Positions 6,183 to 26,800 of a DNA stretch of 64,000 nucleotides are shown here, piece by piece. The stretch lies in the NCBI GenBank assembly GCA_045540335.1, contig JAZQHC010000037.1, positions 1,104-65,103 of the forward strand, given 5' to 3'. The notes under the pieces were generated by a model. The model saw only the letters and a program-made list of their open reading frames with translations. It searched no databases and was not told the origin of the DNA. The stretch's first letter is position 1. Every line of letters begins with the position of its first letter. Origin of the DNA: Eubacteriales bacterium (GTDB taxonomy: Bacteria; Bacillota; Clostridia; Oscillospirales; CAG-272). Made by a program: the position numbers and the translations under genes.

Positions 6183-6944
6183 TTACTTCGTTTCTTTTCT
6201 GTGTTTTAAAATACCTTCTGCAATGCGGATATCCTCGGGCGTGGTTATTTTTATATTTTCATGCCCTGTATCGCACAGAAATACTTTAAATCCGATACGC
6301 GTTACAAGCGAATTATCGTCTGTCGCATCGAACCCTTCTTCTTTCGCGGAAAATGCCGCCGCGCGGTATATATCCGTTCTGAATATTTGCGGTGTTTGTG
6401 CATGGCGAACAACGTTTCTGTCTATGGATTCATCTGCTATAAATCCACCCTTGTCGCAGATTTTTATCGTGTCCTTGGCACAGCAGCAGGCGGTTGCCCC
6501 GCCGAAGCGATATGCCGCCTTGCACACCTCGCTTATCATTTCGGGGGTTACAAGGCAACGCGCCCCGTCGTGTATGCTTACAAATTCGCTTTGCTTGTCA
6601 ACCACGGAAAGACCGTTTAAAACGGATTGTTGGCGCGTTTGTCCGCCCGAAATAACGTGTGTTATTTTTTTGAATTTATATTTTTTGATGATCTCGCCGA
6701 TTTCGGCAAATTCATCCTTTCGGCAAACGAGAATTATTTCGTTTATGTGCGGGCACTTTTCAAATTGGCGCACTGTGCGCGCAATTATGGGCATCTGGCA
6801 TATCTCCATCAACTGCTTCGTTTTATCAGAGTTCATGCGTTTGCCCGTGCCTGCGGCAACGATTATTGCGCTGTTAAAATAACTGTCTTTTTCTTTGCCG
6901 AAAAGCTTTGTTAATATGCCCGTTTTTTTGCCTGACTTACTCAT
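6183..6944 (-). CDS. ispD: 2-C-methyl-D-erythritol 4-phosphate cytidylyltransferase
   Basis: AIIVAAGTGKRM, IHDGARC and QTPQ motifs. The start overlaps the stop of the upstream gene (ATGA). Confidence 0.9.
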   Translation of the reverse strand: MSKSGKKTGILTKLFGKEKDSYFNSAIIVAAGTGKRMNSDKTKQLMEICQMPIIARTVRQFEKCPHINEIILVCRKDEFAEIGEIIKKYKFKKITHVISGGQTRQQSVLNGLSVVDKQSEFVSIHDGARCLVTPEMISEVCKAAYRFGGATACCCAKDTIKICDKGGFIADESIDRNVVRHAQTPQIFRTDIYRAAAFSAKEEGFDATDDNSLVTRIGFKVFLCDTGHENIKITTPEDIRIAEGILKHRKETK

Positions 6945-7477
6945 TCAGCGTAGTTGTAGCCTGCAAGAAGGGCTTTTTGGTTAAGCTCTCTTAACTCTGC
7001 TTTAGAATCGGGAACGGAAGCGGCAAGCTTTTCGGAAAAATATTCAAAATCGAATATTTTCGTTTTAGCTATAACGTAGCCAAGCATGATAACGTTTGCA
7101 AGCTTGGGTGCGTTCATTTCGTTTGCCATTTCGGTTGCGGGGATTCTGTATGCGGATATATCCGTTCTTTCTGATTTTTTTGATATAAGCGTGCTGTCAG
7201 AGAAAACCGCACCGCCTGCAACTACCTTGGGTTCAAACTTATCAAACGAAGGTGCGTTGAAGGCAATAAGAATATCGGGCGTATTTACCAGCGGCGAGCC
7301 TATCTCCTCGTCGGATACGATAACGCTGCAGTTGCACGTACCGCCCCTTTGTTCCGGCCCGTAGGAGGGAAGCCAGGTTACGCATTTTCCCAACTGCATA
7401 CCTGTTTTAGCGCATTGTTTGCCTGAGAACAAAATTCCTTGGCCGCCGAATCCGGCGAATAAAATTCTGTTTGTCAT
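6941..7477 (-). CDS. 2-oxoacid:ferredoxin oxidoreductase, gamma subunit
   Basis: MTNRILFAGFGGQGILF start after GGAGG. Operon context with the alpha, beta and delta subunits. Confidence 0.85.
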   Translation of the reverse strand: MTNRILFAGFGGQGILFSGKQCAKTGMQLGKCVTWLPSYGPEQRGGTCNCSVIVSDEEIGSPLVNTPDILIAFNAPSFDKFEPKVVAGGAVFSDSTLISKKSERTDISAYRIPATEMANEMNAPKLANVIMLGYVIAKTKIFDFEYFSEKLAASVPDSKAELRELNQKALLAGYNYAE

Positions 7478-7490
7478 AATAATCCTCCTA

Positions 7491-8234
7491 TCAATAGCCC
7501 GTGGTGTCTTTATATACACCGAGGGGATATATGGGTTTCATTTTTTCTTCAACAAACTTCAACGCTTCAACCGGTGAAAGACCCCAGTTGGTGGGGCAAG
7601 TTGAAAGAACTTCTACAATGGAAAGGCCTTTTTTATCTATCTGCGCTTGGAACGCCTTTTTAATAGCCTTTTTAGTAGCCCTTACACCCTTAACATCGTT
7701 TACCGCAACGCGTTCGGCATATGCAACGCCGTCAAGCGTGGACATCAATTCGCAAACGTGAACGGGGTGGCCCTGAATGTTTTTGTCACGGCCGTAGGGT
7801 GAAGTTGTAGTTACCTGGCCAAGCATCGTCGTAGGTGCCATTTGGCCGCCTGTCATACCGTAGTTTGTGTTATTTATAAAGATGATAGTTATGTTTTCGC
7901 CTCTTGCACCGACGTGAACCGTTTCAGCAGTACCGATAGCGGCAAGGTCGCCGTCGCCCTGGTATGTGAAAACAACGTTGTCGGGGTGCGTGCGCTTTAC
8001 ACCCGTAGCAACTGCGGGTGCACGGCCGTGTGCCGCTTCTATCATGTCACATTCGAAATAATTATATGCAAATACCGCACATCCTACAGGGGCAACGCCT
8101 ACTGTTTTGCCTTCTATACCAAGCTCGTCAAGCACTTCGGCAACAAGCCTGTGAACGATACCGTGCGTACAGCCGGGGCAGTAGTGCATGGGTACGTCGG
8201 ACATTGCGTTAGGTTTTTTGAATACTACCGACAT
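7491..8234 (-). CDS. 2-oxoacid:ferredoxin oxidoreductase, beta (TPP-binding) subunit
   Basis: YCPGCTHG and GDGD..AIG TPP motifs. Confidence 0.88.
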   Translation of the reverse strand: MSVVFKKPNAMSDVPMHYCPGCTHGIVHRLVAEVLDELGIEGKTVGVAPVGCAVFAYNYFECDMIEAAHGRAPAVATGVKRTHPDNVVFTYQGDGDLAAIGTAETVHVGARGENITIIFINNTNYGMTGGQMAPTTMLGQVTTTSPYGRDKNIQGHPVHVCELMSTLDGVAYAERVAVNDVKGVRATKKAIKKAFQAQIDKKGLSIVEVLSTCPTNWGLSPVEALKFVEEKMKPIYPLGVYKDTTGY

Positions 8235-9292
8235 TATTTATTACCTCCCATTTCTTCGATCTTTGCAAGAACGTCTTCAACGGTCATCATAGAACCGCCC
8301 GTTCTGCCCAAAAATTCTACGGGCTTGGAGCATTCGATAGCCAGCTTAACGTCTGTTATCATCTGGCCCATATTAAGCTCTACCGTAAGGAATTTGCTTG
8401 CCGTTTTTGAAAGTGCAAGCAACTCTTTTTCAGGGAACGGCGAAAGGGTGATGGGGCGCAAAAGGCCAACCTTTATACCCTTTGCCCTTGCTGCTGTAAC
8501 TGCACTTTTGCAGATACGGGAAGTAATACCGTATGCAACGATAACGATATCAGCATCTTCAGTCATAAACTGCTCGCATCTTACTTCGTTTTCGTCTATC
8601 TTCTTGTATTTTTCGTATCTTGCCAAAACGGAATTTTCAAGCTCTTCGGGGTTAAGGAAAAGAGAAGTGATTATATTCTTTTTACGTTTGCCCTGGTGGC
8701 CGCACGCTGCCCAATCCTTTTCGGGAATTTCGCGTTTTTTGATAACGTCGAAATCAACAGGCTCCATCATTTGGCCCAACGCACCGTCTGCCAGAATAAG
8801 AACGGGCACGCGGTACATATCTGCAATATCAAACGCTTCACAGGTAAGCTCTGCCATTTCCTGAACGGAAGAGGGTGCAAGCACGAAAAGGTGCATATCA
8901 CCGTGGCCGAGCGCTTTCGTTGCCTGATAGTAATCTGCCTGCGAGGGCTGAATGCCGCCAAGACCGGGGCCGCCCCTTTGTACGTTAAGAATAACGCAGG
9001 GCAGATCGCAACCTACTATGTAGCTTATGCCTTCGCTTTTAAGGCTGATACCGGGCGAAGATGATGACGTCATGCAACGCGTACCGGAAGAAGCCGCACC
9101 GTAAATCATGTTGATTGCCGCAACTTCAGATTCTGCCTGCAAGCAAAGACCGCCAACCTTCGGCATTCTTTTTGCCATGTATTCGGCAATTTCAGTCTGG
9201 GGGGTTATAGGATAACCGAAGTAATGCAGACATCCCGCTTTGATAGCAGCCTCTGCAATGGCTTCGTTGCCTTTCATAAGTACCTTTGCCAT
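8234..9292 (-). CDS. 2-oxoacid:ferredoxin oxidoreductase, alpha subunit
   Basis: MKGNEAIAEAAIKAGC..FGYPITPQTEI N-terminus typical of KorA/VorA-type subunits. Confidence 0.88.
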   Translation of the reverse strand: MAKVLMKGNEAIAEAAIKAGCLHYFGYPITPQTEIAEYMAKRMPKVGGLCLQAESEVAAINMIYGAASSGTRCMTSSSSPGISLKSEGISYIVGCDLPCVILNVQRGGPGLGGIQPSQADYYQATKALGHGDMHLFVLAPSSVQEMAELTCEAFDIADMYRVPVLILADGALGQMMEPVDFDVIKKREIPEKDWAACGHQGKRKKNIITSLFLNPEELENSVLARYEKYKKIDENEVRCEQFMTEDADIVIVAYGITSRICKSAVTAARAKGIKVGLLRPITLSPFPEKELLALSKTASKFLTVELNMGQMITDVKLAIECSKPVEFLGRTGGSMMTVEDVLAKIEEMGGNK

Positions 9293-9294
9293 AT

Positions 9295-9525
9295 TTATGC
9301 CTCCTGTTCCTTTTCAATATCTTTTTCAACCGTTATAACGGCGTCGGGGCACATAGTCGCGCACATAGCGCATGCAATACAAGCACCCATATCCGTAACT
9401 TGTGCGGGGTGATAACCCTTTGCGTTAAGTACGGAGGTATCAAGCGATACGATTTTTTTGGGGCAGGCTACAACACAAAGCCCGCACCCCTTGCACCTTT
9501 CGGTGTTGAAGGTTACTCTGTTCAT
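9295..9525 (-). CDS. 2x[4Fe-4S] ferredoxin-type delta subunit
   Basis: CKGCGLCVVACP and CIACAMCATMCP cluster motifs. Confidence 0.85.
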   Translation of the reverse strand: MNRVTFNTERCKGCGLCVVACPKKIVSLDTSVLNAKGYHPAQVTDMGACIACAMCATMCPDAVITVEKDIEKEQEA

Positions 9526-9533
9526 AATTCCTC

Positions 9534-10193
9534 CTAAAATAACTTTTTTGTTATATTCTGCATTGTAAACACCTCTGTATTACAAACGGGCATCTCTCCC
9601 ATTACCGAGGTGAATTTTATATTCAAGCCCGAAAGGCGAGAAAATTCTTCAGCGTAAGAAAAAGAATTTTCAATATCTTCCTTTTGGGTGAATTGACCTA
9701 AATTGGAATTGTTTATACAACAAGTGCATTTTAAACGGCTTCTTGCTTCAATCTCTTTCAATATTTTCATTGCGCCGTCGGGCGTTTCGGTTATAGGGCG
9801 GTACATATTGAAAACGTATGCCATTTCGTACCCGAAAGAGGTTATTTCTTTGTTAAAAAAGCCGAGTGCCGCCGCACCTAAGCTGTCGCCCCCTACGTCG
9901 AATATACAAACACCGCCGTTTTTAAGGTGCGGAAATACCGAATATACCTCTGCCGGGATAGATGGAATATCAACGTTTGTATTAGCAAATACAGGGGCGA
10001 TCACGTTTATATTTTTTTCTTTCATAAGGCTTTCTGCATCTTTTGTGCGGAAATATGGGTTTACGGTATCAAGATCAACGATCGTAACGTTTTCGCCTGC
10101 TTCGGCGTATTTAGTTGCAATATTTACAGAAATATTAGTTTTACCGCTTCCGAAATGGCCGGTAACGATAATAAGCTTTGAAGAAAAAAACAT
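9534..10193 (-). CDS. P-loop NTPase (MinD/CooC-like), first gene of the oxidoreductase operon
   Basis: Walker A GHFGSGKTN. Sits 8 nt upstream of the delta subunit on the same strand. Confidence 0.5.
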   Translation of the reverse strand: MFFSSKLIIVTGHFGSGKTNISVNIATKYAEAGENVTIVDLDTVNPYFRTKDAESLMKEKNINVIAPVFANTNVDIPSIPAEVYSVFPHLKNGGVCIFDVGGDSLGAAALGFFNKEITSFGYEMAYVFNMYRPITETPDGAMKILKEIEARSRLKCTCCINNSNLGQFTQKEDIENSFSYAEEFSRLSGLNIKFTSVMGEMPVCNTEVFTMQNITKKLF

Positions 10194-13225: not shown

Positions 13226-15265
13226 TTATTTTACGATGTATCTCATAAATATGGGATGGTGGTCAGACGGGAAATCACCGTTAACCTTTTCGTTGCAAAC
13301 CCTGTAAGACCTCAAGTTGAAGTCGGAAGCGGATGCAAATACGTAGTCAAGCACTCTGTTATCTGCACCGAAGTTTGTAAACGTAGATGCTTCATATCTG
13401 GAAGCGGCGTTCTTCGCGCTGTCAACAAAGCCGTTTGCAATTACGTTGTTGTAAGTAGCAGAGCCGGGCGTTGTGTTAAAGTCGCCTGTGAGAATCGTGG
13501 GGTAATCACCGTAAGACTTCAAGAAGTTATAAAGAACACCAAGCTGCTTTATTCTTATTGCGTCGTTCGTATATTCGACGTGCGTGTTAACTACAAGTAT
13601 TTTCTTGCCATCGTCGATTCTTTGAAGAAGTGCATAAGTAAATATACGAATATAAGAAGAATCGGGGAATTTAGAAACAACGTCAGGTGTGCCGGAAAGC
13701 CACTTTGTGCCGCTATCTAAAAGCTTGAAAATGTGCTTGTTGTACATGATTGCGCTGTGCTCGCCTTTAGAACCGCCTTCACGGCCCAAGCCTACGAAGC
13801 CGTATGTGCCGCCAAGGTTGTTTTTAAGCAACGTCATCCAGCTGGGGGTAGCTTCCTGAATACCGATGGTATCGGGCGTGTAGCTCTTCATCAAGGAAAG
13901 AACTCTGTTTGTTCTTGTCGTGTTGAACTGACCGCAATATACGTTGAACGTCATTGCAGACATAACGCCTTTAGTAATGTTGAAAAGCTGTGCGTTTGTA
14001 GAGTTGGACGTCCAAATCTGAACGTTTGTCATATTTGCTGTGCCTGCTGCTGCAACGTCTAAAACAAAGTTTTCGGACAAAGCAGAACAGAAGGTGTACT
14101 TACCGTCTTTTTCATAGATAAACCAACGTTGTGCAGCAGATCCGTTGCCGGGTGCAATGTAAACGTTTGTACCGTTTGCAGCACCGCCCTGTACTGTAAG
14201 AACGTAGTTTGTTGTGTTGTTGTTTACGATAACGTAGCTTCCGTCAGACTGACGTTCAAAACGCCATACCTGGTCGGAGTTTTGCGACGGGGAGTAAATT
14301 ATTACGTTAGTGCCCGAAACCGCAATGTTCTTGGAAACGTAAGAAAGGGAGATGCTTGCGTTGAAGCGTGTACCAAGGTTTGCAGGCTTGGGTGCTTCGG
14401 GTTCAGCGGGTACTTCAGGTACTTCGGGTTCAACAACGGGGGGCGTGGTGGGTTCTTCGTTTTCTGTGTTATCGTCGGATACGTCAACAGTAGTGATCTT
14501 GAACTGTTGAAGCGCTGCGCTTGCAAACGTGCTCATATACACATTTGCACCTGCGGAAGAGCTTGCAGCCGTAAGAACGCATGTAGTGCCGCATTTTGCA
14601 CGCAATGTGTAAGAACTGTTCTGGTTTTGGAAGATGTACCAGCGTTGTGCGTTGGTATCGTTGCTTGCGTAAATGTCAACGTTTGCGCCGGAAGCACGGG
14701 ATGCCGCATAAACATCAAGCACTTTGCCTGTTGCGTTGTTTGTGATCTTATAGCTTCCATCGCTTTGGCGTGTAAGCAGCCATGTTTGATTTGCGTTATC
14801 GGGGTTTGCCGTAACTACGTTATTGCCGCTGGCAGTTACGTTTTTGCTGCCGGAAACCGTGCTGATAACAACGTTGATATTCGTACCAAGATCAACAACG
14901 GGGGCTGTAACGCGGATTTCGTTGATACCATTGCTCATAAAATGGTTCATTGCAGATTCGCGGTTAGAACCGAATGCTGCTTTAAGGTCGCCGTTTTTCG
15001 TAAGATAGTAATCAGTGCTGAAAATAGGGCTTGCCTGACGGCCCTCTTTAACGCCGTGGTTTACAAAGTGATTGTAAAGCTGTGATTCGTTTGTGCCGAA
15101 TGCCGCTTTCAAATCCGCATATCTGTTGGCGTAATACGTAGCGTTAAAAACAACGGATTTAACGCTTGAAGAAATTGAAGCTGCTGCCATGGTCTGCAAC
15201 GGGAATATTGCCGCAACCATGAGGATTGCCAAAAACAATGAAGTCAGTTTCGTGAATCTTTTCAT
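13226..15265 (-). CDS. secreted protein: N-terminal YY..DLKAAFG repeats, two ricin-type beta-trefoil lectin domains, C-terminal endonuclease/exonuclease/phosphatase (EEP) domain
   Basis: Signal peptide. QxW-type triplets (NQTWLL, AQRWYIF, LQQFKI; DQVWRF, AQRWFIY, AQLFNI). Pro/Glu linker. EEP motifs IQE, NTH, GDFN and SDHHP. Confidence 0.75.
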   Translation of the reverse strand: MKRFTKLTSLFLAILMVAAIFPLQTMAAASISSSVKSVVFNATYYANRYADLKAAFGTNESQLYNHFVNHGVKEGRQASPIFSTDYYLTKNGDLKAAFGSNRESAMNHFMSNGINEIRVTAPVVDLGTNINVVISTVSGSKNVTASGNNVVTANPDNANQTWLLTRQSDGSYKITNNATGKVLDVYAASRASGANVDIYASNDTNAQRWYIFQNQNSSYTLRAKCGTTCVLTAASSSAGANVYMSTFASAALQQFKITTVDVSDDNTENEEPTTPPVVEPEVPEVPAEPEAPKPANLGTRFNASISLSYVSKNIAVSGTNVIIYSPSQNSDQVWRFERQSDGSYVIVNNNTTNYVLTVQGGAANGTNVYIAPGNGSAAQRWFIYEKDGKYTFCSALSENFVLDVAAAGTANMTNVQIWTSNSTNAQLFNITKGVMSAMTFNVYCGQFNTTRTNRVLSLMKSYTPDTIGIQEATPSWMTLLKNNLGGTYGFVGLGREGGSKGEHSAIMYNKHIFKLLDSGTKWLSGTPDVVSKFPDSSYIRIFTYALLQRIDDGKKILVVNTHVEYTNDAIRIKQLGVLYNFLKSYGDYPTILTGDFNTTPGSATYNNVIANGFVDSAKNAASRYEASTFTNFGADNRVLDYVFASASDFNLRSYRVCNEKVNGDFPSDHHPIFMRYIVK

Positions 15266-15507: not shown

Positions 15508-15536
15508 TTGACAAATTCGAAAATATGTTGTATCAT
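15508..15536 (+). promoter_or_regulatory. sigma-A promoter TTGACA-17 nt-TATCAT driving the T-box leader
   Basis: TTGACA 15508-15513 and TATCAT 15531-15536. Confidence 0.65.
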
Positions 15537-15549
15537 ATCGGCATGTAAA

Positions 15550-15804
15550 CACTGTGAAGAAAACGGCGGAAAAAGATTTTTACAGAGAGTCGGCGTTTGG
15601 TGTAAGCCGATAGGATCAATTTCCAAAAAGCCACATCATTTCTGAGTGGGGGAGGCGAAAATTGCAGTAGCCTCTCACGATTAGCCGCGTTAAGGCGAAG
15701 GGCTTTGTGATGAGTCCGAAGTGGCATTTTATGCAAGTTGAGTGGTACCGCGGTGCTTTAACCGTCTCAAGGCTGGTAGTAGCTTTGGGGCGTTTTTTGT
15801 TTTT
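15550..15804 (+). promoter_or_regulatory. T-box leader (tRNA-sensing transcription attenuator)
   Basis: K-turn-like base (CAC-UGU-GA.. / ..UGA-GUG). AG bulge AGAGA 15584-88. Distal loop GTTTGGTGTAA 15595-15605. T-box sequence GAGTGGTACCGCG 15740-52. Terminator stem 15763-73/15782-92 followed by TTTTTTGTTTTT. Confidence 0.85.
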
Positions 15805-15866
15805 CACTCAAGCCGCTTTGAACACCAGAAGCAAACCAATTTCAAAAGAAAGAAAGGTATTGTAAA

Positions 15867-18158
15867 ATGGAGAAAACGGATTTGAAGAATCAATTGTGCG
15901 AGGTGGCACAGAGAATCAAAACATTGCGCGAGATCATGGGAATTACCCCTGAAGATATGGCGCAAAAAACAGGCTTAACAACAGAAAATTATCTTAAATA
16001 CGAGTCGGGCCAGGTAGATTTCAGCTTTACATTTATTTATAAATGTGCAAACAACCTTAATGTTGACCCCACAGATCTTATAAAAGGCGAAAGCCCCACG
16101 CTTTCAAATTATACCCTTACAAGAAGCGGCGAGGGCTTGCCGATAACGCGCCGCGAGGGCTGCAAATATCTTAACATGGCGCCCTTGTTTAAACAAAAAA
16201 CGGCAGAGCCTTTTATGGTAGAGATGCCGTTTAACCCCGCAGAGGTAAACGCACCAATCAAGCTTTCCACACACGAAGGGCAAGAATTTGACGTTATTAT
16301 CTCGGGAAGAATGAAGGTTCAGATAGGCAATCATACCGAGGTTTTGTGCCCGGGGGATTCGATATACTATAACTCGTCTGCACCGCACGGAATGGTAGCG
16401 CTTGATCCCGAAGGGGTTAAGTTTTACGCAATAGTTTTGAAGAAAACGGAAACTGCAGAAGAAAAGGATAAATTCCAGCAGATCGTTTCGCAAAGAAAAG
16501 CAAGAAAAGATGCACACGCTTCAAGCATTGCGGCAAATTTCATAGATACCGAATGCGATGAAAACGGCGTGTTGAAGAAGATATCCTTCAGAAACGAAGA
16601 TAAATACAATTTCGGCTTCGATACGGTAGATGCGCTTGCGGAAAAGTGCCCCGACAAGCTTGCAATGCTGCATGTTTCTGCAGATAAAACAGAAAGAAGA
16701 TTTACGTTTGCGGATATCAAAAAGTATTCCGCAATGACTGCCAATTACCTTGAATCCCTCGGCATTAAAAAAGGCGATAGAGTTATGCTGGTATTAAAAA
16801 GGCATTATCAATTCTGGTTTGCTATCGTTGCTTTGCATAAGATCGGCGCAGTTGCGATACCCGCAACGAATCAATTGATGCAGCACGATTTTGAATACAG
16901 ATTCAAGGCGGCAGGGGTAAACGCAATACTTTGCACGTCAGACGGCGACGTTGCACACCAAGCAGAAATGGCGGCAGCGGCATGCGGCGGCGTTCCTGCT
17001 ATAAAGGTTATTGTGGGCCAACCCAGGGAAGGATGGCTTGATTTTAACGCAGGCATCAGCAAAATGTCTGACGTTTATGAAAGAAGAGAAGATACCGCCT
17101 GCGGATTTGATCCAATGCTTATGTACTTTACGTCAGGCACTACGGGATATCCCAAAATGGCAACGCAGGATTACAGATACGCTATCGGCCATTACGTAAC
17201 GGCAAGATATTGGCATAACGTAAACCCCGAGGGCTTGCACTTCACTATCTCCGATACGGGCTGGGGCAAGGCTGTTTGGGGCAAGCTTTACGGTCAATGG
17301 CTGTGCGAGGCGGCAGTATTTACCTACGATTTTGACAGGTTTGATGCAAACGAAATATTGCCAATGTTTGCAAAGTACAATATCACTACCTTCTGCGCAC
17401 CGCCCACCATGTACCGTTTCTTTATAAAAGAAGATCTTTCAAAATTTGATCTTTCAAGCATAGAATATTCAACTACGGCAGGCGAAGCGCTTAACGCCGA
17501 AGTGTTCGAACAATGGCGCAAAGCTACGGGATTAAGCATAATGGAGGGATTTGGCCAAACCGAAACTACGCTTTCTATATGCAATCTTGTCGGCACAACG
17601 CCGAAGCCCGGTGCAATGGGCAGGCCCAGCCCCCAATACGACGTTGATATAGTAGATGAAGACGGCAACAGCGTTCCCGTAGGGGAAACGGGTGAAATCG
17701 TTATCCACGTTGATAAAAAGATACCCTGCGGTCTTTTCAAGGGCTATTACCGTAACGATGAAAAAACGAAAGAGGTATGGCACGACGGATTGTATCATAC
17801 CGGCGATACTGCTTGGCGTGATGAAGACGGATATTTCTGGTACGTTGGCAGAACAGACGATGTTATCAAATCCTCCGGTTATCGCATAGGCCCGTTTGAG
17901 ATCGAAAGCGTGATAATGGAGCTTCCGTATGTGCTTGAATGCGCCGTAACCGCAGTGCCCGACCCGATAAGAGGGCAGGCGATAAAGGCTTCTATCGTGC
18001 TTGTAAAGGGCAAAGAGGGAACAGACGAGCTGAAAAAAGAAATTCAGAACTATGTTAAAGAGCATACTGCCCCTTATAAATATCCAAGGGTGGTACAGTT
18101 TATGGAAGCTTTGCCCAAAACGATAAGCGGTAAGATAAAAAGAAACGAATTAAGATAA
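15867..18158 (+). CDS. fusion protein: XRE HTH + cupin domain + AMP-forming medium/short-chain acyl-CoA synthetase (ACSM/MACS-like)
   Basis: HTH ITPEDMAQKTGLTTENYLKYESG. Cupin GDSIYYNSSAPHGM. Adenylation motifs YFTSGTTGYPKM, SDTGW, GFGQTET, TGDTAWRDEDGYFWYVGRTDDVIKSSGYRIGP, TAPYKYPR and PKTISGKIKR. Confidence 0.85.
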   Translation: MEKTDLKNQLCEVAQRIKTLREIMGITPEDMAQKTGLTTENYLKYESGQVDFSFTFIYKCANNLNVDPTDLIKGESPTLSNYTLTRSGEGLPITRREGCKYLNMAPLFKQKTAEPFMVEMPFNPAEVNAPIKLSTHEGQEFDVIISGRMKVQIGNHTEVLCPGDSIYYNSSAPHGMVALDPEGVKFYAIVLKKTETAEEKDKFQQIVSQRKARKDAHASSIAANFIDTECDENGVLKKISFRNEDKYNFGFDTVDALAEKCPDKLAMLHVSADKTERRFTFADIKKYSAMTANYLESLGIKKGDRVMLVLKRHYQFWFAIVALHKIGAVAIPATNQLMQHDFEYRFKAAGVNAILCTSDGDVAHQAEMAAAACGGVPAIKVIVGQPREGWLDFNAGISKMSDVYERREDTACGFDPMLMYFTSGTTGYPKMATQDYRYAIGHYVTARYWHNVNPEGLHFTISDTGWGKAVWGKLYGQWLCEAAVFTYDFDRFDANEILPMFAKYNITTFCAPPTMYRFFIKEDLSKFDLSSIEYSTTAGEALNAEVFEQWRKATGLSIMEGFGQTETTLSICNLVGTTPKPGAMGRPSPQYDVDIVDEDGNSVPVGETGEIVIHVDKKIPCGLFKGYYRNDEKTKEVWHDGLYHTGDTAWRDEDGYFWYVGRTDDVIKSSGYRIGPFEIESVIMELPYVLECAVTAVPDPIRGQAIKASIVLVKGKEGTDELKKEIQNYVKEHTAPYKYPRVVQFMEALPKTISGKIKRNELR

Positions 18159-18232: not shown

Positions 18233-19429
18233 TTAAGATTCTTTTTGCTTTATTTTTCGTTGAATAACGGTGTTGATAATTCGAAATATAAGTAAAATCA
18301 ACAGCTCGGTAACGATGATAAAAGCTATTTGCATTGTCCATTCAACGGTTACATCAGGCCCAATGTACGTATAATTCGGCGTTGTCGGCATATGATGTGT
18401 TTCTATAACAAAACAAGCACGGCTGATATTTAACGTATTAAGGCAGAGAAGTATGTTTCGTATGCCGAACAAGATCAACGAATACCTAATGCCTTTTTTT
18501 TGCACCAAAAATACGAGAAATATTACGATACATACTAAAACCATTGCAGCACCGATAATGTAAAAAATATCTATCGACCCAAATCCGATTATCTGCGAAT
18601 ACGGCGCTGTGATAAATAGAATTACGGCAATTACAAAGGCAATCAGCTGAAGCACGTTCATTTTTTGGGTTACAGGGTCGATATCGTTACAATAAGCTTG
18701 ATCCGTTATCCAACAAGAAAATCTGTTTTTTACAACGAAAAAAATATAAACAAGAAAAATTGCTATCGGCAAAAGAATATTCAAATAGCTGCTAACGGCA
18801 AGAACGCTGTCTATATAATTGTCAACACAGATAATAAGCGGAAGCGAGATGCACAAAACGGATATTATCGCAAAAAAAGCCCTATAAGAAAAATTTCCCA
18901 GCACGTTGTTGAACTTTTTTAACGTATCTTCATCAACGTTTTCTGTAAACAGCTCTGCTTCGTTTTTTATCTCTTTCATTTTGCCTACCGCACTGACAGT
19001 AATAACGAAAGCGGCTATTTCGAACAACGTCATCACCGCGTATCCTATGATGGGGCGCATAAAACCGTACGATATACCAAGCATACATACAAGACCGACC
19101 GCACAAAGAGATAACGATATCAGTATTGAAGTTTTAAATTTTGAAACAGAACGGTTTATAAGAATTTTTATTTGTTTTTCAACCTTTGGTTCTGCCCTTT
19201 CTTGATCGCGTTCCGTAAATATACGTTCGCCCTTTAAAAGCTCGTCGCAGGTAACGCCGAAAATTTCCGCAATGGCAGGTATTAAGGAGATATCGGGCGC
19301 GCATTCGTTACGTTCCCATCGGCTTACAGCCTTGTTTGATATATTCAGCTTATCTGCCAATTCCTGCTGCGTCATTCCGTTTGCTTTGCGCAAGGCGGCA
19401 ATAAATGTACCTATTGTTTTCTTTTCCAT
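18233..19429 (-). CDS. XRE HTH regulator with polytopic C-terminal membrane domain
   Basis: The internal ATG at 19429 is preceded by GGAGG (MEKKTIGTFIAALRKANGMTQQELADKLNISNKAVSRWE), followed by multiple TM segments. The 104-aa upstream extension in the ORF track lacks coding character. Confidence 0.75.
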   Translation of the reverse strand: MEKKTIGTFIAALRKANGMTQQELADKLNISNKAVSRWERNECAPDISLIPAIAEIFGVTCDELLKGERIFTERDQERAEPKVEKQIKILINRSVSKFKTSILISLSLCAVGLVCMLGISYGFMRPIIGYAVMTLFEIAAFVITVSAVGKMKEIKNEAELFTENVDEDTLKKFNNVLGNFSYRAFFAIISVLCISLPLIICVDNYIDSVLAVSSYLNILLPIAIFLVYIFFVVKNRFSCWITDQAYCNDIDPVTQKMNVLQLIAFVIAVILFITAPYSQIIGFGSIDIFYIIGAAMVLVCIVIFLVFLVQKKGIRYSLILFGIRNILLCLNTLNISRACFVIETHHMPTTPNYTYIGPDVTVEWTMQIAFIIVTELLILLIFRIINTVIQRKIKQKES

Positions 19430-19809
19430 AAGAAAGCCTCCGTAGTTTTGATGCCTGTATTCTACCGTTTTAAGACGAAAATTTGAAGACCGTAAAGCGG
19501 GATTTAATCTCGCAAAGCGGGAAAAGTGCCGTTTAGACTGCTTTTTTTTAAAAAAATCGGCTGAATAACCGCTTGCGGTACGTATTATATACCCTTTGAA
19601 AATCAAAGTCAATAATTTCTTTGTCATTTGCAAAATTAAAGCATTTTTAAATCGGGCATGTAAAAATTTACAATATATTGCGAAAAAGTTTCTAATAACA
19701 TCTTTGGAAAAAATGCAATGTATGATATAATTATAAATCAAAATTCAGTTATGTTGTAAATACCGAATTTGTATATGATGATTTATAAAGATTAAAGGAG
19801 AGCATATAG

Positions 19810-20966: not shown

Positions 20967-21041
20967 GGAGCTGCTAGACAGAGTCGAACTGTCGACCTCA
21001 TCCTTACCAAGGATGTGCTCTGCCAGCTGAGCCATAGCAGC
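20966..21041 (-). tRNA. tRNA-Thr (anticodon GGT), 76 nt with encoded CCA
   Basis: The reverse complement folds as a cloverleaf: acceptor GCTGCTA/TAGCAGC, D stem GCTC/GAGC, anticodon stem CATCC/GGATG with loop TTGGTAA, T arm GACAG-TTCGACT-CTGTC, then T-CCA. Confidence 0.9.
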
Positions 21042-21117: not shown

Positions 21118-22077
21118 ATGATAAAACAAGCAAAATGGGCGTTTATCGGCTGCGGTTGGGCAGGCGGCGATATGGCGGAAATATTTGCAAGATCGAATCG
21201 AAAAATATTTGCCGTTTACAGCCGTACGTATGAAAAAGCGTGCGACTTTGCAAAAAAATACAACATCGAAAAGGTGTATAAAACGGCAGAGGAGTTATAT
21301 TCAGATAACGATATAAACTGCGTTTATATAGCTACACCGCACAGCAACCACGCGGAATTTATTGAAAAGTGCGTTAACAGCGGAAAAAATGTGCTTTGCG
21401 AAAAGGCAATAACCGTTAATCACACCCAATTATCGCGTATAAACCGTTTAGCAAGCGAAAAAGGCGTTACCGTTGCCGAGGGAATGACGGTTTATAATAT
21501 GCCTTTACACCGTGCCTTATCGAAGCGTGTTTTAAGCGGCGAATTCGGAAAGGTAAATCTTATACAGGTAAATTTCGGCAGTACGAAAAAATACGATCCG
21601 AACAACAGATTTTATAGTAAAAGCTGTGCAGGCGGTGCTATGCTTGATATAGGCGTTTACGCCCTTGCACTTGAAAGAATGTACAGCAGCTGCCGCGTTG
21701 AAAGCGTATCTTCAAGCGCGGTTTTTACAGAAAGCGGCGTAGATGAAGGCTTCGGTGCGGTAATAAACAGAAAAAACGGGCAGATAAGCACTTTAACGGT
21801 GTCTTTAAATTCAAAGCTGCCGAAGCGCGCAGTTATATCCTGCGCAGATGCGTATATAGAAATATACGATTATCCGAGATGCGACAAAGCAGAGATAGTG
21901 TATCTGAATAAAGAAAAGGAAATATTCCAAATCGGAAACACGAAAGACGCACTTCTTTATGAAATAGAAAATTTTGAAAACAACTGCGATATGCTTCAGA
22001 ACCATACGTACGACGTTATGCAAATCGCCACGGAAATGCGTAAACATTGGGGGCTTGTGTATCCTTTTGAGGATTAA
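21118..22077 (+). CDS. Gfo/Idh/MocA-family NAD(P)-dependent oxidoreductase
   Basis: N-terminal Rossmann [10 protein letters not shown] and the EKA motif (VLCEKAIT). The ORF-track start at 21106 is TTG, and the ATG at 21118 is preferred. Confidence 0.75.
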
Positions 22078-22772
22078 AGCTTGCTTTCTATTTCGTTTTT
22101 TAACCGTTTGATTATCTTTTTTTCAAGCCGCGAGATGTAAGATTGGGATATACCAAGTGCATCTGCGGTTTCTTTTTGCGTTAATTCACGCTTGCCGTCA
22201 AGCCCGAAGCGCAGGCTGATTATTTGCCTTTCACGCGGGTCTAAACCGTTTACTATTCGGTTTATCATACGGCGTTCTTCGTCTTGCTCGATATCGTGCG
22301 ATACTGTATCTGAATCGCTTCCGATAACGTCGCATATAAGAAGCTCGTTTCCGTCGTAGTCAACGTTAAGGGGCTCGTCAAGCGACATTTCGTTTTTTAA
22401 ATAGCTGTTTTTTCTTATGTACATCAATATTTCGTTTTCTATACAGCGCGATGAATACGTTGCTAATTTTATGTTTTTGTCGGGATCGTACGTGTTTATG
22501 GACTTTATCAATCCGATAGTGCCTATCGATATAAGATCCTCTATGCCGATGCCCGTGCTTTCAAATTTTTTTGCAATATATACTACAAGCCGCAGATTTC
22601 TTTCTACAAGTATTTTTCTTGCACAAGGGTCTTCCTTTAACCGTTCCATTACAGATGCTTCTTCTTCCGGTGTGAGGGGCGGCGGCAGCGTTTGCGAGCC
22701 GTTTATATAAAAAACGGTATTATCTTCCACCTTTAAGCCGAATATTTTTTTAATTATTTTTTTTAACAGCAT
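22074..22772 (-). CDS. sigE: sporulation sigma factor SigE (pro-sigma-E)
   Basis: Pro-sequence plus [43 protein letters not shown] and [15 protein letters not shown]. Immediately downstream of spoIIGA. Confidence 0.9.
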
Positions 22773-22788
22773 ATTATTTTCCTTTCTT

Positions 22789-23628
22789 CTATTCGCAAAT
22801 GTTTAACGGGGCAACACCTTCAAACCCCGAAAAATCTGTTTTTTCTCCTGCGGCTATCACTGCGCGTACGTTTATTTGCCCGCTTGACGTTTTTACCGAT
22901 ACGTTATCCGGCAAAATGCCCGTAAGCACACCGTTTCCCGATGCGGTGGAAATCGGAATATAGCGAAGCTTTGCCAAAACGTCTTTTTGCAAAAGTATGT
23001 CTTCAAATTTGCAGCCGATCAGTTGCTCTATTACGTGCGGCGGCACGACTACGACGGGCGCACCGCTTAACGGTTCAACCAACAGATTTCCGCTATCGGC
23101 AAGAACGCGTATTTTGCAAGATCTTTGCCCAAGCACTGCCGTAATATCGGCGTGCTTTACTGAGGTGCTTTTTAAAAAGATCCTGCCTGTTATGTATGAA
23201 AGCAAAAGACAAGCCGAAACCACAAGCACGAATACCCAAACGGGTATTTTTTTTTCGCTTGAAAAATCGGTGTTTATATTTACGTTGTAAAAAAGCTTAT
23301 CCAAAAAAGAATAGCTTGATGTAACCGCACCGCCGCACAGTAAAGAAACGCCGTAAAATATTATGCAAAGCTTGATATATCTTTTTTTCGATTTTGGATA
23401 TGCAATAAAGCACATTAAAAGATATACAGCAATATTCAAAAGCAAAACGACGGTATTGCTTTTTATAAAAAGCGCAAAAACACCGTATATACCGCCAAGT
23501 AAAGATGCAATGCATAAAAGATGGCGTTTTGCCTGCAAATGAAGCAGTTTTCCGCTTATATAAAGCGAAATAAGATCCATTGAAAAATTTATAACGAAAA
23601 GTATATCACCGTAAACCGTTGTTTTCAC
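22789..23628 (-). CDS. spoIIGA: sigma-E processing peptidase SpoIIGA
   Basis: The GTG at 23628 lies 5 nt after [33 protein letters not shown]-terminus, five TM segments and a C-terminal protease-like region. Confidence 0.85.
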
Positions 23629-23649
23629 CTTATCCCTCCTTGCAGATAA

Positions 23650-23682
23650 ATTATATATCGAACGGGTTGATTTTTTTGTCAT
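23650..23682 (-). promoter_or_regulatory. candidate spoIIG-type promoter with over-long spacer (ATGACA-21 nt-TATAAT) containing a Spo0A-box-like TATCGAA
   Basis: Plus-strand tgtcat 23677-82 and attata 23650-55. TATCGAA 23656-62 versus the 0A-box consensus TGTCGAA. Confidence 0.4.
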
Positions 23683-23824
23683 ACCGTGGAGCAATCTAAA
23701 ATTTAACTTTTAGGTTATATCTGCAGAAAATTTGAAAAACAGCACTATTCAGAAGCTTTTGTATAAAAATCACATTAAAGGATATAATTTCATTATCACA
23801 ATAAGTATGCAAAGGGTACGATCT

Positions 23825-26800
23825 ATGAAAAAAGGGCAGTTGTTAAAGGGGATAAAAAAAAGCCTTGCGCGCGCAGGTGATATGCGCTGTTCGGAAATAG
23901 CAATAAGGGAAAACTATTATTTATTGGCGCAAAAAGGAAAATACGCCTATAATCAGATAGCGCACAGTAAAGAAAAATGCTATGAACACGTTTTGGATAT
24001 ATTGTTTATTCTTCAAAGATATCATTTTGATATATCGCAAGATGAGCTGTTCAAAGAGGTAAAGCCGCTTAAATTAAGCGATGGGGAATTAAAGCATCTG
24101 TATGAAATAATAGTATATTGCTGCCTTTTTTCCTTGGGCGAAAACAAAAATAACGACAAAATAATAAATTTTATAAGGCGTGCAGGCTTTTATGATTATA
24201 AACGCTTTTACCGTCTGTTAAGCGAGCTGGAAAAGGTGCTTTTGCTTAATCACGATTATAAAATAAGCGATGAAGAAACACGTCAGTTGTATGTTTTCGC
24301 TTTAAAAAAGTACGCAAAAAAACATAAAATGCCGATTTTGAAGGCTGCCGCAAAGGTATCCGAAGGCGGTATATCGCAAGTATTGTTCGAAAAACCGCAC
24401 CCGATAGCAGAAAAACTGTATTTTGCGGTTATTTTTTCTTTTTTTGCCTTTTTGGCTTTATCCGAGGCTTTCGTAATATTTTTTCCGTTTTCTTTTTCGG
24501 CGATTTTGCCCTTTTTGCTTTCACTTGTTCCTATTTACGAATGCTCTGTATATCTTACCAATTATTCTTATTCAAAGCTGTTTTACCCGCGCGTAAAGCC
24601 TGCGTTAAACGTAAACGATATACCGAAGGAAGTCAAAACGCTTGCAGTAATTACTTCATTGTTAAACGGCAACGATACCGACGTTTTTGAAAAAATCGAA
24701 CAGTACTACGTAAGCAATAAATACGACGGGCTAATGTGCGGTATTCTTGCCGATTTGCCCGACAGCGACCTTCCCGAAGAGCAGAATGACCTTAATATCC
24801 TGAAAAACGCCGAAATGGCAATAGACCGCTTGTGCGAAAAATACGGCGATATCTTCTTTTTGTTTTGGCGAAAAAGAGAATATTGCCCAACAGAGGGTAA
24901 GTTTATTGCCCCCGAAAGAAAGCGTCTTGCCGTGGGGCAGCTATGCAGTCTGCTTTATACCGGAAAGGGAAATATCGAGGTATATGGAAGCCAAAATCTG
25001 CTTTTCGGCACGAAATATCTTATAACGCTTGATTCCGACACCGTATTGCCCCCCGGTACGGCAATAAGAATGACAGCCGTGGCAGAGCATCCGCTTAACC
25101 GCCCCAAAATAGACGAATCTGCACGAAAGGTTGTAAAGGGGCACGGTATATTGCAGCCTGCGGTAGATACGCTGATATCGTCTGCGGCAAAAACTCCGTT
25201 TTCGCTTATTTCTTCAGGCAACGGCGGCGTTCAATCGTATAGATCTGCAAGATTTGACGTATATGAAGAAATATTCGGCAAAGGAATATTTTGCGGAAAA
25301 GGCATAATAAACTGCGAGGCGTTTTGTAAAACCGCAATCGATATCTTCCCGTGCGAAAAAATTCTTTCGCACGACGTTGTCGAGGGGTGCTTTTTAAACT
25401 CAGGTATGATACCGAATATTGCCCTGTACGATTCTACCCCGTCAAATGCGAATGCATATTATAAACGATCAGACAGGTGGATCAGGGGCGATCTTCAAAC
25501 GTACGCTGTTTTTAAAGGAAAATACGTAAAAACAAAAAACGGAAAAGTAAAAAATCCGCTATCCGCCTTTGATAAATACAAATTGTTTGATAATCTTCGC
25601 CGCGATATTACCCCCGCATTTGCTGTATCCGCAATGATAGCAGGTGCTTTTTGTAAAAGATACGTATGTGTTTCCGTAGCGTTTTTTTCTTTGTTTTACG
25701 TTATTATCCCTGCCTTTGTTTCGTTTTTGGAATGTGTAATTTCGGGTGCTTTCGGCGTTAAAAGAAAATTCTATTCTTTTGCCGTTTCGGATTTTTGGTA
25801 CGCTTTTTTGTATTTAATGTGGAAGATATCTGCTGTTGCACACGATGGGTACGTTGGCGCAAAGGCTGCTGTTACATCTTTATGGCGCTTGAATATCAGC
25901 GGTAAAAATCTGCTTGCATGGGTAAGTGCATCACAAGCGGAAAAAACGTTAAAGGGCAGTCTTGGCATATATCTGCTTAAAGGCGCATTTTCGGTTTTGT
26001 GCGGCTTTTGCTTTTTGTTGTTCGTTCCCTTCGGTATATATCGTGCATCAGGTGTGCTTTTTATTTTAAATCCCTTTGCAATGTACCTTTCTTCAAAGCC
26101 GGTAAAGCAAAAAAGCAAGGCGTGCAGCGAAAACGACCGAAAACAGCTTGCAAAATACGTGCACGATATGTGGCAGTATTTCGAAGACTACGTAAACGAT
26201 GAAACAAATTATCTTCCGCCCGATAACGTTTCGTTTATCGGCGGAGAAAAAATAGCACAGCGTACCTCGCCGACGAATATAGGGCTGTACCTTATGTCTG
26301 CCATGGGCGCGTATTATTTTGGTATTTTCGGCAAGGAAAAGCTTTACCAAGTTATAGAAAAAACGGTTTTTACCGTTGAAAAAATGAAAAAGTATAAGGG
26401 CAATTTGTATAACTGGTACGATATAACGAATATCAGTACGTTGAATACGTTTGTTTCTTTCGTAGATAGCGGCAATTTCGTCTGCTGTATGGTGTGCGTT
26501 AAAGAAGGTCTTGAAAAAATATTTTCGCCTAACGATAATCTGGTAAAAAGAATAAACGCCTTAATACTTCAAACCGACCTTGGCTGTATGTACGATGAAG
26601 AAGCGAATATGTTTTATATCGGTACAGACGAGGTGCACGGCGTTACGAAGGGCAACCATTACGACATGTATATGAGTGAGGCAAGAACAAGCGATTTTTA
26701 CGCCGCCGCCCATGGAATAACGAAAAACCGACTTTTGTGCAATACTTCAAGAACGGTAATAGGCAAAAACGGATATATGGGGCTTGCCTCGTGGACGGGA

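Follow-up and report, generated by a model that had tools for sequence, protein, structure and literature searches.

An isoleucine T-box leader upstream of a cupin-acyl-CoA synthetase fusion gene: a probable entry step of branched-acid salvage

The leader and its specifier codon

A 64-kb stretch of contig JAZQHC010000037.1 from a Eubacteriales bacterium, called the window here and taken at its full length, carries a T-box leader followed by a gene for a 763-residue fusion protein, in which an XRE-like helical domain and a cupin stand before an AMP-forming acyl-CoA synthetase (Table 1). An earlier note on this DNA had read the leader as apparently specific for isoleucine and the enzyme as possibly the activating step of a route that makes isoleucine from 2-methylbutyrate. 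By comparing related loci we find this salvage interpretation well supported. The comparison shows the window gene to be the Ile member of a paralogue family whose specifier codon (AUC for Ile, GUA or GUC for Val and, in one lineage, CUC for Leu) would name the amino acid that each member serves.

The RF00230 covariance model for T-boxes matches positions 15545-15772 on the plus strand over its full length (model positions 1-219) with 99.1 bits (E 1.3e-20). This is above the curated gathering score of 93, and the Infernal scan proposed in the earlier note is thereby passed. It is the sole match in the 64-kb window, no second T-box being found there by the RF00230 scan. An nhmmer profile built from orthologous leaders covers window positions 15547-15800, and a TTGACA/TATAAT pair equivalent to the window promoter is present in every orthologous leader. 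Stem I has a K-turn base, a specifier loop with the codon and one unpaired base above the lower helix, an AG bulge and a distal loop, the last two being the platform for the tRNA elbow. Downstream, the T-box sequence holds the UGGN bulge, and the antiterminator competes with the terminator. Pairing of UGGN with the tRNA 3′ end is established for T-boxes, and here UGGU 15743-46 would be the partner of the 3′ ACCA end of an uncharged tRNA having discriminator A. Promoter, Stem I, AGAGA, GGUG and T-box all lie where the earlier note had put them, as does the terminator, whose stem at 15763-92 has 13 pairs (11 bp in the earlier note) and is followed by a T-run. The canonical AGUA...GAA S-turn was not found in the window specifier loop, the model's AGUA being aligned to a gap in the RF00230 alignment; S-turns are frequent among T-boxes and are not required for RF00230 membership. 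Read in this way from its sequence, the transcript from the 15508-36 promoter is one that carries a transcription-attenuating T-box riboswitch with an AUC specifier.

In the covariance-model alignment AUC and A 15638 after it immediately precede UUUC 15639-42, a strand of the lower Stem I helix, and the model thus picks the same codon that had been proposed from inspection. The 4-bp lower helix covaries in 79 related leaders (GAAG/CTTC in 63, GAGG/CCTC in 9, GAAA/TTTC in 3 and GGAG/CTCC in 2). On the other side of the codon the earlier note had drawn a helix between GGC 15565-67 and GCC 15630-32. This helix is not part of the Rfam alignment, yet the same 3-bp closure of the loop covaries in orthologous leaders (GTC/GAC, GTT/AAC, GAA/TTC and GCA/TGC) and is fully paired in 54 of 78. 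Because both flanking helices covary, the register of the specifier is fixed independently. ATC occupies the specifier columns in all 65 readable leaders, the window included, which answers the suggested survey of orthologue specifiers; the three bases before it vary (12 variants), and the base after it is A in 47, C in 14, G in 3 and T in 1. For the orthologue L017 the Rfam alignment likewise places AUC in the specifier slot, so that in neither the window nor L017 does the model favour a different codon.

Table 1. Features of the window discussed in the text
Feature	Position	Strand	Basis
Sigma-70 type promoter	15508-15536	+	TTGACA 15508-13, 17 nt, TATCAT 15531-36; 11 of 12 positions match
T-box leader: Stem I, Stem II/IIA-B region, Stem III, antiterminator/terminator	15545-15802	+	RF00230, nhmmer
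GAAA, 5′ strand of the helix just below the specifier loop	15559-15562	+	pairs with UUUC 15639-15642, RF00230 alignment
AG bulge AGAGA 15584-88 and distal loop with GGUG 15599-602	15584-15602	+	aligned to model consensus AGAGA / UUGGUG
Specifier AUC 15635-37 (Ile) and following A 15638	15635-15638	+	covariance-model alignment, conservation in orthologous leaders
T-box sequence AGUGGUACCGCG	15741-15752	+	RF00230 alignment, conserved block of the model
Intrinsic terminator	15763-15802	+	13-pair stem 15763-92, then T-run; competes with antiterminator
Coding sequence, 763 aa: XRE-like helical domain, cupin and MACS-type AMP-forming acyl-CoA synthetase, Ile-type paralogue	15867-18158	+	Pfam, PDB, NCBIfam
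N-terminal module, aa 1-215: XRE-like domain aa 15-76, cupin aa 132-189, invariant H136/E140/H174	15867-16511	+	Pfam, alignment, PDB profile
Acyl-CoA synthetase part, aa 215-763	16509-18158	+	50% identity to M. acetivorans Macs (PDB 3ETC)
Putative partner cluster	6941-10193	-	homologues adjoin Val/Leu-leader paralogues elsewhere
P-loop protein, 219 aa	9534-10193	-	GSGKT motif; weak MinD/ParA/Mrp-like matches only
Ferredoxin-like delta subunit	9295-9525	-	OFOR-subunit model
VorB alpha subunit	8234-9292	-	NF005507, 546 bits vs cutoff 399
Beta subunit	7491-8234	-	OFOR-subunit model, below curated cutoff
Gamma subunit	6941-7519	-	OFOR-subunit model, below curated cutoff
Divergent neighbour, 679 aa: four ricin-type beta-trefoil lectin repeats and endonuclease/exonuclease/phosphatase domain	13226-15265	-	Pfam
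Convergent neighbour, 502 aa: internal XRE HTH aa 110-172, no other recognised domain	18233-19741	-	Pfam
tRNA gene, 66.7 bits, anticodon loop GGU (Thr) by eye	20969-21041	-	Rfam scan; unrelated to the Ile T-box
sigE (344 vs cutoff 339) and spoIIGA-like genes	22074-23694	-	NCBIfam
2343-aa open reading frame: GH94 catalytic, supersandwich and glucoamylase-like domains; resembles cyclic beta-1,2-glucan synthase or phosphorylase	23732-30763	+	domain search

A paralogue family named by its specifiers

The XRE-like/cupin-synthetase fusion protein is very common. A protein search returned 120 clusters at ≥67% identity, all but one with the helix-turn-helix (HTH), the cupin and both AMP-binding domains, and a scan of one genome per species confirmed at least 597 relatives (597 of the 600 matched stretches listed). 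The best 80 loci were compared; they are the best matches and not a random sample, and nearly all of the comparison sequences are metagenome-assembled genomes (MAGs). Their sources are Oscillospiraceae, Acutalibacteraceae, Ruminococcus and Christensenellaceae of gut and rumen, Neglectibacter timonensis among them. A T-box core lies 75-280 nt upstream of the fusion gene in 67 of the 80 species-level loci, with two more loci cut at the contig end, which speaks against the possibility, foreseen in the earlier note, that the orthologues have no T-boxes.

Searching with a profile of the leaders, we found a second strong T-box in 14 loci, mostly directly after the fusion gene, and in each case a second HTH-cupin-synthetase gene follows. 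The specifier of this second leader is GUA in 13 loci and GUC in one, the codon thus varying synonymously for valine, and the Rfam alignments of L068 and L075 agree with a Val specifier. The proteins behind Val leaders form one clade, with that of L075 as the sole exception. A metagenome pattern scan for leaders of the same class whose codon starts with a pyrimidine gave 120 loci, the majority of them belonging to leuA-like, ilvA-like or Trp-transporter genes. In two of them (L106 and L173) a CUC (Leu) leader stands before a 763-aa fusion gene, which is followed by a P-loop gene and VorB; being 97% identical to each other, the two count as one lineage. No Phe, Trp or Tyr fusion genes were found among the 120 pyrimidine-first loci, Leu being the sole type among the fusion genes.

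The genes behind the Val-leader copies connect this family to the oxidoreductase of the window. There the alpha subunit passes the NCBIfam cutoff for VorB, and the adjacent beta, gamma and delta genes match the corresponding models for 2-oxoacid:ferredoxin oxidoreductase (OFOR) subunits at scores under the curated cutoffs. We thus assign the cluster at 6941-9525, in which the earlier note had already seen an OFOR, to the VOR type. In 11 of the 14 tandem loci, genes for a P-loop protein (~225 aa) and VorB come after the Val-leader paralogue on the same strand, neighbouring genes overlapping or being separated by short gaps. The beta gene is present in 9 of these 11 loci and the gamma gene in 6, which is wherever the fetched locus reaches far enough, and the gap before OFOR alpha has room for a small ferredoxin-like delta gene. 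The genes after the Val-leader copy are homologous to window genes 9534-10193, 8234-9292, 7491-8234 and 6941-7519, so that the OFOR of the window is a homologue of an enzyme placed directly after a T-box-controlled ligase in relatives. The VorB of L068 also passes NF005507 (560 bits), and in L068 and L050 an ilvE gene (477 vs cutoff 307) lies between the Val-leader ligase and the VOR genes. A homologue of the P-loop protein lies downstream of the Val-leader ligase in 12 genome loci, in 11 of which the VOR genes come right after it, and L106 shows this order behind its Leu-leader gene. The P-loop protein may assist the maturation of the oxidoreductase or serve it as an accessory factor.

Another arrangement with a Leu leader closely precedes the Ile-type gene in 8 loci (L017 1416-5587; L068 1-4399; also L011, L015, L022, L025, L043 and L050). 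Here a Leu (CUC) T-box of 117-119 bits, with the S-turn present, precedes a LeuA-like gene (HMGL-like and LeuA_dimer, about 455-480 aa), and then comes a gene of 825-850 aa in which a xylose-isomerase-like TIM barrel (AP_endonuc_2) is fused to an AMP-binding ligase. In L066 a homologous TIM-ligase fusion is found on the opposite strand, and in L098, L115, L122, L166 and L189, all from metagenomes, a Leu T-box stands directly before the TIM-ligase fusion. A PDB sequence search with the TIM-barrel/AMP-binding fusion gave generic ANL ligases only. This fusion may be linked to leucine, with isovalerate as a possible substrate. Abundant human-gut contigs (many of L082-L200, e.g. L083 and L084) have, behind a CUC (Leu) leader of this T-box subclass, a gene of ~400 aa (438 aa if the longest possible start is taken), whose product, judged from its sequence, looks like a pyridoxal phosphate-dependent enzyme resembling threonine dehydratase (IlvA). 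UGG (Trp) leaders of the same set precede ABC-type substrate-binding proteins.

The synthetase and its N-terminal module

In the 763-aa product Pfam places HTH_19/HTH_3 at aa 15-76, Cupin_2 at 132-189, AMP-binding at 258-628 and AMP-binding_C at 678-756. The synthetase part matches the archaeal enzyme MacsMa (3ETC) at E 3.7e-193, with 50% identity over 549 residues, and ACSM2A at E 2e-102, in agreement with the earlier assignment to the AMP-forming acyl-CoA synthetases of ACSM/MACS type. The earlier note had mentioned an archaeal MACS with a preference for 2-methylbutyrate. MacsMa prefers this acid and completes the CoA step with this acid only, whereas with propionate it forms the adenylate and does not complete the CoA step (PMC10455477). 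The roles of the pocket and CoA-site residues were taken from the same paper, and with a numbering offset of 23 for 3ETC (expression tag) every residue named there falls on the right amino acid. MacsMa W259, the pocket Gly, Y460, R490, K519, Y525 and Y527 are conserved in the window enzyme and in 95 aligned fusion-family proteins, among which W259, the Gly, Y460, R490, Y525 and Y527 do not vary at all. In the window protein W471 corresponds to W259 and G563 stands where Acs has its Trp, and the conserved residues further include Y672, R702, Y737 and Y739. K461 of MacsMa is Arg in the window enzyme, and C257 is Ala or Ser. Unlike the window gene, the archaeal enzyme has neither the N-terminal XRE-like/cupin module nor a T-box.

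The best NCBIfam match of the window protein is S. aureus MbcS (NF047394), yet with 424.1 bits, far under the equivalog cutoff of 850, the protein is related to MbcS and is not its equivalog. MbcS activates 2-methylbutyrate and isobutyrate, not isovalerate (PMC10026030). Among the differences between Ile-type and Val-type proteins, all at positions next to the pocket, G467A lies beside the equivalents of MacsMa K256 and W259, and the GQTET motif is closely followed by S570I and A572G; a smaller pocket for a smaller acid would fit these differences. MacsMa and MbcS, the two closest characterised relatives, both activate 2-methylbutyrate, and the window enzyme most likely does so too.

Many residues that distinguish Ile-type from Val-type proteins lie in the N-terminal module (N-module), at aa 45-141. 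In L075 (3323-8274) the synthetase parts of the tandem copies are 99% identical and the N-modules 49%. The copy behind the Val leader has the N-module of the Val clade (60% vs 45%), and each of the two N-modules matches the type predicted by its own leader. Thus the N-module, and not only the catalytic part, tracks the specifier, suggesting that its type is pathway-specific. The L075 pattern suggests that gene conversion has recently affected the catalytic part only, or else it is an effect of MAG assembly.

A profile of 43 N-modules has the XRE-cupin regulator 1y9q as its best PDB sequence match (E 4e-10), with the same order of an XRE-type HTH followed by a cupin, and it matches HppE over the full length (aa 13-189, E 2e-6). 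H136, E140 and H174 fall on H138/E142/H180, the Fe ligands of HppE, in the alignment and are invariant in these 43 and in 55 N-module sequences; together with the full-length similarity, this 2-His-1-Glu triad makes the N-module HppE-like, with a putative metal site. In an AF2 model of the N-module (pLDDT 79, pTM 0.54) both domains are confident, but the linker and the relative orientation are not. Foldseek with this model gave near-equal values for HppE (E 3e-10) and 1y9q (E 1.3e-9) and does not separate the HppE-like from the regulator-like reading; the TM score of the HppE match is only 0.32, owing to the uncertain domain orientation in the model. HppE, HEPD and MPnS, the top Foldseek matches, share the helical XRE-like alpha domain and the cupin with the N-module, but at only 18-20% identity, and they use O2 on phosphonates, which is unlikely for a salvage gene of a strict anaerobe. 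XRE-cupin factors such as PuuR/PauR, ErfA, PsdR and V. cholerae 1Y9Q have the same two-domain order, but they are stand-alone proteins of about 190 aa, whereas the window module is fused to an enzyme, its helical domain is acidic and no operator was found for it. Such factors act locally, repressing metabolic genes in their neighbourhood, and sense pathway metabolites, the 1Y9Q cupin holding D-methionine (PMC7901475).

The remaining surroundings of the locus are listed in Table 1. From the sigE and spoIIGA-like genes the source is a spore-forming Firmicute. Genes for pyruvate kinase, ispD/ispF, ychF, uvrC, trmD and plsY in the window make up an ordinary chromosomal context.

Branched-acid salvage and competing explanations

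Reductive carboxylation of branched-chain acids to isoleucine, valine and leucine is classical physiology in rumen and gut anaerobes. The predicted ligase, VOR-type oxidoreductase and aminotransferase match its steps, and their genes cluster in related loci. We consider it probable that the locus, induced through its T-box on isoleucine starvation, is the entry step of a branched-acid salvage that leads from 2-methylbutyrate to isoleucine. By the mechanism established for T-boxes, the 15763-92 terminator would form with charged tRNA-Ile. Uncharged tRNA-Ile(GAU) would instead dock on Stem I through the specifier and the AG-bulge/distal-loop platform, and its free ACCA end would pair with the UGGU of the T-box, stabilising the antiterminator and allowing read-through into the gene. 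The ligase would turn exogenous 2-methylbutyrate into 2-methylbutyryl-CoA, which the VOR-type oxidoreductase (6941-10193) would reductively carboxylate to 2-oxo-3-methylvalerate, and a branched-chain aminotransferase would make isoleucine from the latter.

The T-box logic would be the same if the Ile-type enzyme activated propionate, with propionyl-CoA reductively carboxylated to 2-oxobutyrate and carried to isoleucine by ilvBCDE. Gut and rumen are rich in propionate, OFORs are well known to have 2-oxobutyrate synthase activity, and an Ile-type gene never followed by VOR or ilvE would suit such a route. The adenylate that MacsMa forms with propionate points the same way, but the CoA step that it does not complete with this acid points away (PMC10455477), as do the conserved branched-acid pocket residues W259 and G351. 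Moreover, the Val-leader paralogue can serve valine only via isobutyrate, which makes branched acids the simpler reading for the whole family, and we regard propionate as an unlikely substrate in this role. It is very unlikely, in our view, that the acyl-CoA mainly primes the synthesis of anteiso branched-chain fatty acids, as with MbcS, and not that of isoleucine, a shortage of isoleucine being sensed since isoleucine normally supplies the primer. MbcS does feed fatty-acid primers, with no cupin fusion and no T-box control reported (PMC10026030, PMC11167679), and its model is the one that the window enzyme matches best; nor is an aminotransferase or OFOR co-transcribed with the gene in the window. 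The match is, however, far under the MbcS equivalog cutoff. T-boxes sense tRNA charging, that is, the demand of protein synthesis, and the co-directional VOR genes behind Val- and Leu-leader paralogues, with ilvE in two loci, point to amino-acid synthesis.

These two alternatives concern the acid and the fate of its CoA ester, and a third concerns the N-module, which might be a genuine XRE-cupin repressor of its own promoter or of the VOR promoter until a metabolite binds the cupin, giving an enzyme-repressor of BirA or PutA kind with control of initiation atop the T-box. The Pfam matches to both domains, the similarity to 1y9q and the local repression by XRE-cupin factors would all suit such a repressor, as would the presence of the module in loci that have no T-box. 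In about 30 loci, furthermore, the stretch from the -10 box to Stem I holds an invariant 18-mer, AAATTTGAATATCACAAA, at the transcript start, with a varying spacer next to it. The 18-mer could be an operator or a 5′ RNA element and is absent from the window. It was seen in L011-L047 and relatives, e.g. at about 5640-5660 in L017. When the promoter-to-Stem I regions were lined up, no palindrome or operator-like motif common to all of them was found, and none that supports or excludes DNA binding by the N-module. An 11-mer, AAAATATGTTG, common to the acyl-CoA synthetase and VOR promoter regions of the window, is absent from the closest relative, L001, and was treated as chance. The HTH part is acidic (mean net charge -4.3; helix 2-3 consensus VSxEEYxxxExGExDF) and in this resembles the non-DNA-binding alpha domain of HppE, unlike 1y9q, and HppE is matched full length with its Fe ligands on the invariant triad. 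A repressor is thus possible but doubtful, and we find it somewhat more likely that the N-module controls the enzyme by binding a small molecule or metal than that it represses transcription as a classical DNA-binding protein. As a tentative extension, the pseudo-HTH/cupin may be a new enzyme-attached sensor that binds the end-product amino acid or keto acid and gates the ligase. There would then be two layers of control (tRNA charging at the RNA, a metabolite at the protein), with the specifier stating the amino acid supplied and T-box loss marking lineages that always depend on branched acids.

Several points weigh against salvage of 2-methylbutyrate as the function of the locus. Across the 80 loci, VOR or ilvE genes come only after a Val- or Leu-type copy and never after the Ile-type one. 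In the window the VOR cluster lies 5.7 kb from the ligase gene on the opposite strand, in divergent orientation, and the RF00230 scan finds no T-box before it. The substrate is deduced from an archaeal enzyme of 50% identity and from paralogue logic, the Leu-leader case consists of a single lineage, and the specifier loop is without the usual S-turn. Eight of the nine related-locus leaders scored with RF00230 fall under the Rfam gathering score, at 74-92 bits (E 1e-14 to 1e-19); the Ile and Val leaders of L017, L055, L068 and L071 have 74.5-91.7 bits (E ≤1e-14). Lastly, no T-box was found in 11 of the 80 loci by nhmmer --max over 1.5 kb upstream, nor was a T-box or other known RNA found by an Rfam E-value scan in the five of these 11 that it covered.

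The loci without a T-box are those of a Ruminococcus subclade, largely from rumen and hindgut (L030, L033, L038, L046, L048, L049, L067, L070 and L078), together with L027 and L076. In those from Ruminococcus the promoter is still present and the leader starts with ATGTAAGC, where the window has ATGTAAAC. Since the promoter and the first leader bases remain, the T-box has most likely been lost in these 11 loci, and its loss in rumen Ruminococcus may reflect a constant dependence on branched acids.

With known T-boxes (RF00230; the B. subtilis tyrS, ileS and ilv-leu leaders) the window leader shares the full Stem I, the K-turn, the UGGN T-box and the competing helices. The usual targets are genes for aminoacyl-tRNA synthetases, biosynthesis and transporters, whereas here an acyl-CoA synthetase is controlled. 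The specifier loop is moreover compact and without the AGUA/GAA S-turn, while within the same genomes the Leu leaders before leuA-like genes have it. In the full-text literature and in T-box regulon surveys with their supplements, of which our coverage is incomplete, we found no acyl-CoA synthetase or VOR under T-box control and no XRE-cupin-ligase fusion, and the searchable literature gave neither a gene-level or regulatory account that ties the branched-acid carboxylation route to T-boxes nor one, at the level of genes, of the activation of the acids or the regulation of the route. One practical reason for this silence is that, with scores under the 93-bit gathering score, Rfam-based annotation misses most leaders of this fusion-gene class. 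The T-box, the ligase class and the physiology were each already known; their combination, the family named by its specifiers and the enzyme-fused cupin module appear to be new.

These leaders extend the T-box regulon to acid-activating enzymes and make up a sizeable T-box class just under the Rfam cutoff, and they draw attention to a so far unexplored XRE-like/cupin module, fused to an enzyme and of a type that goes with the specifier. Branched-chain volatile fatty acids are a requirement of many fibre-degrading Clostridia in rumen and gut. This locus and its paralogues provide candidate genes for the ligase that activates such acids, linked by operon structure to a VOR-type oxidoreductase and ilvE. 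If the salvage reading is true, the branched-acid route would be switched on by tRNA charging, which bears on the cross-feeding of branched acids, on auxotrophy predictions from metagenomes and on branched-acid supplements in the feeding of ruminants.

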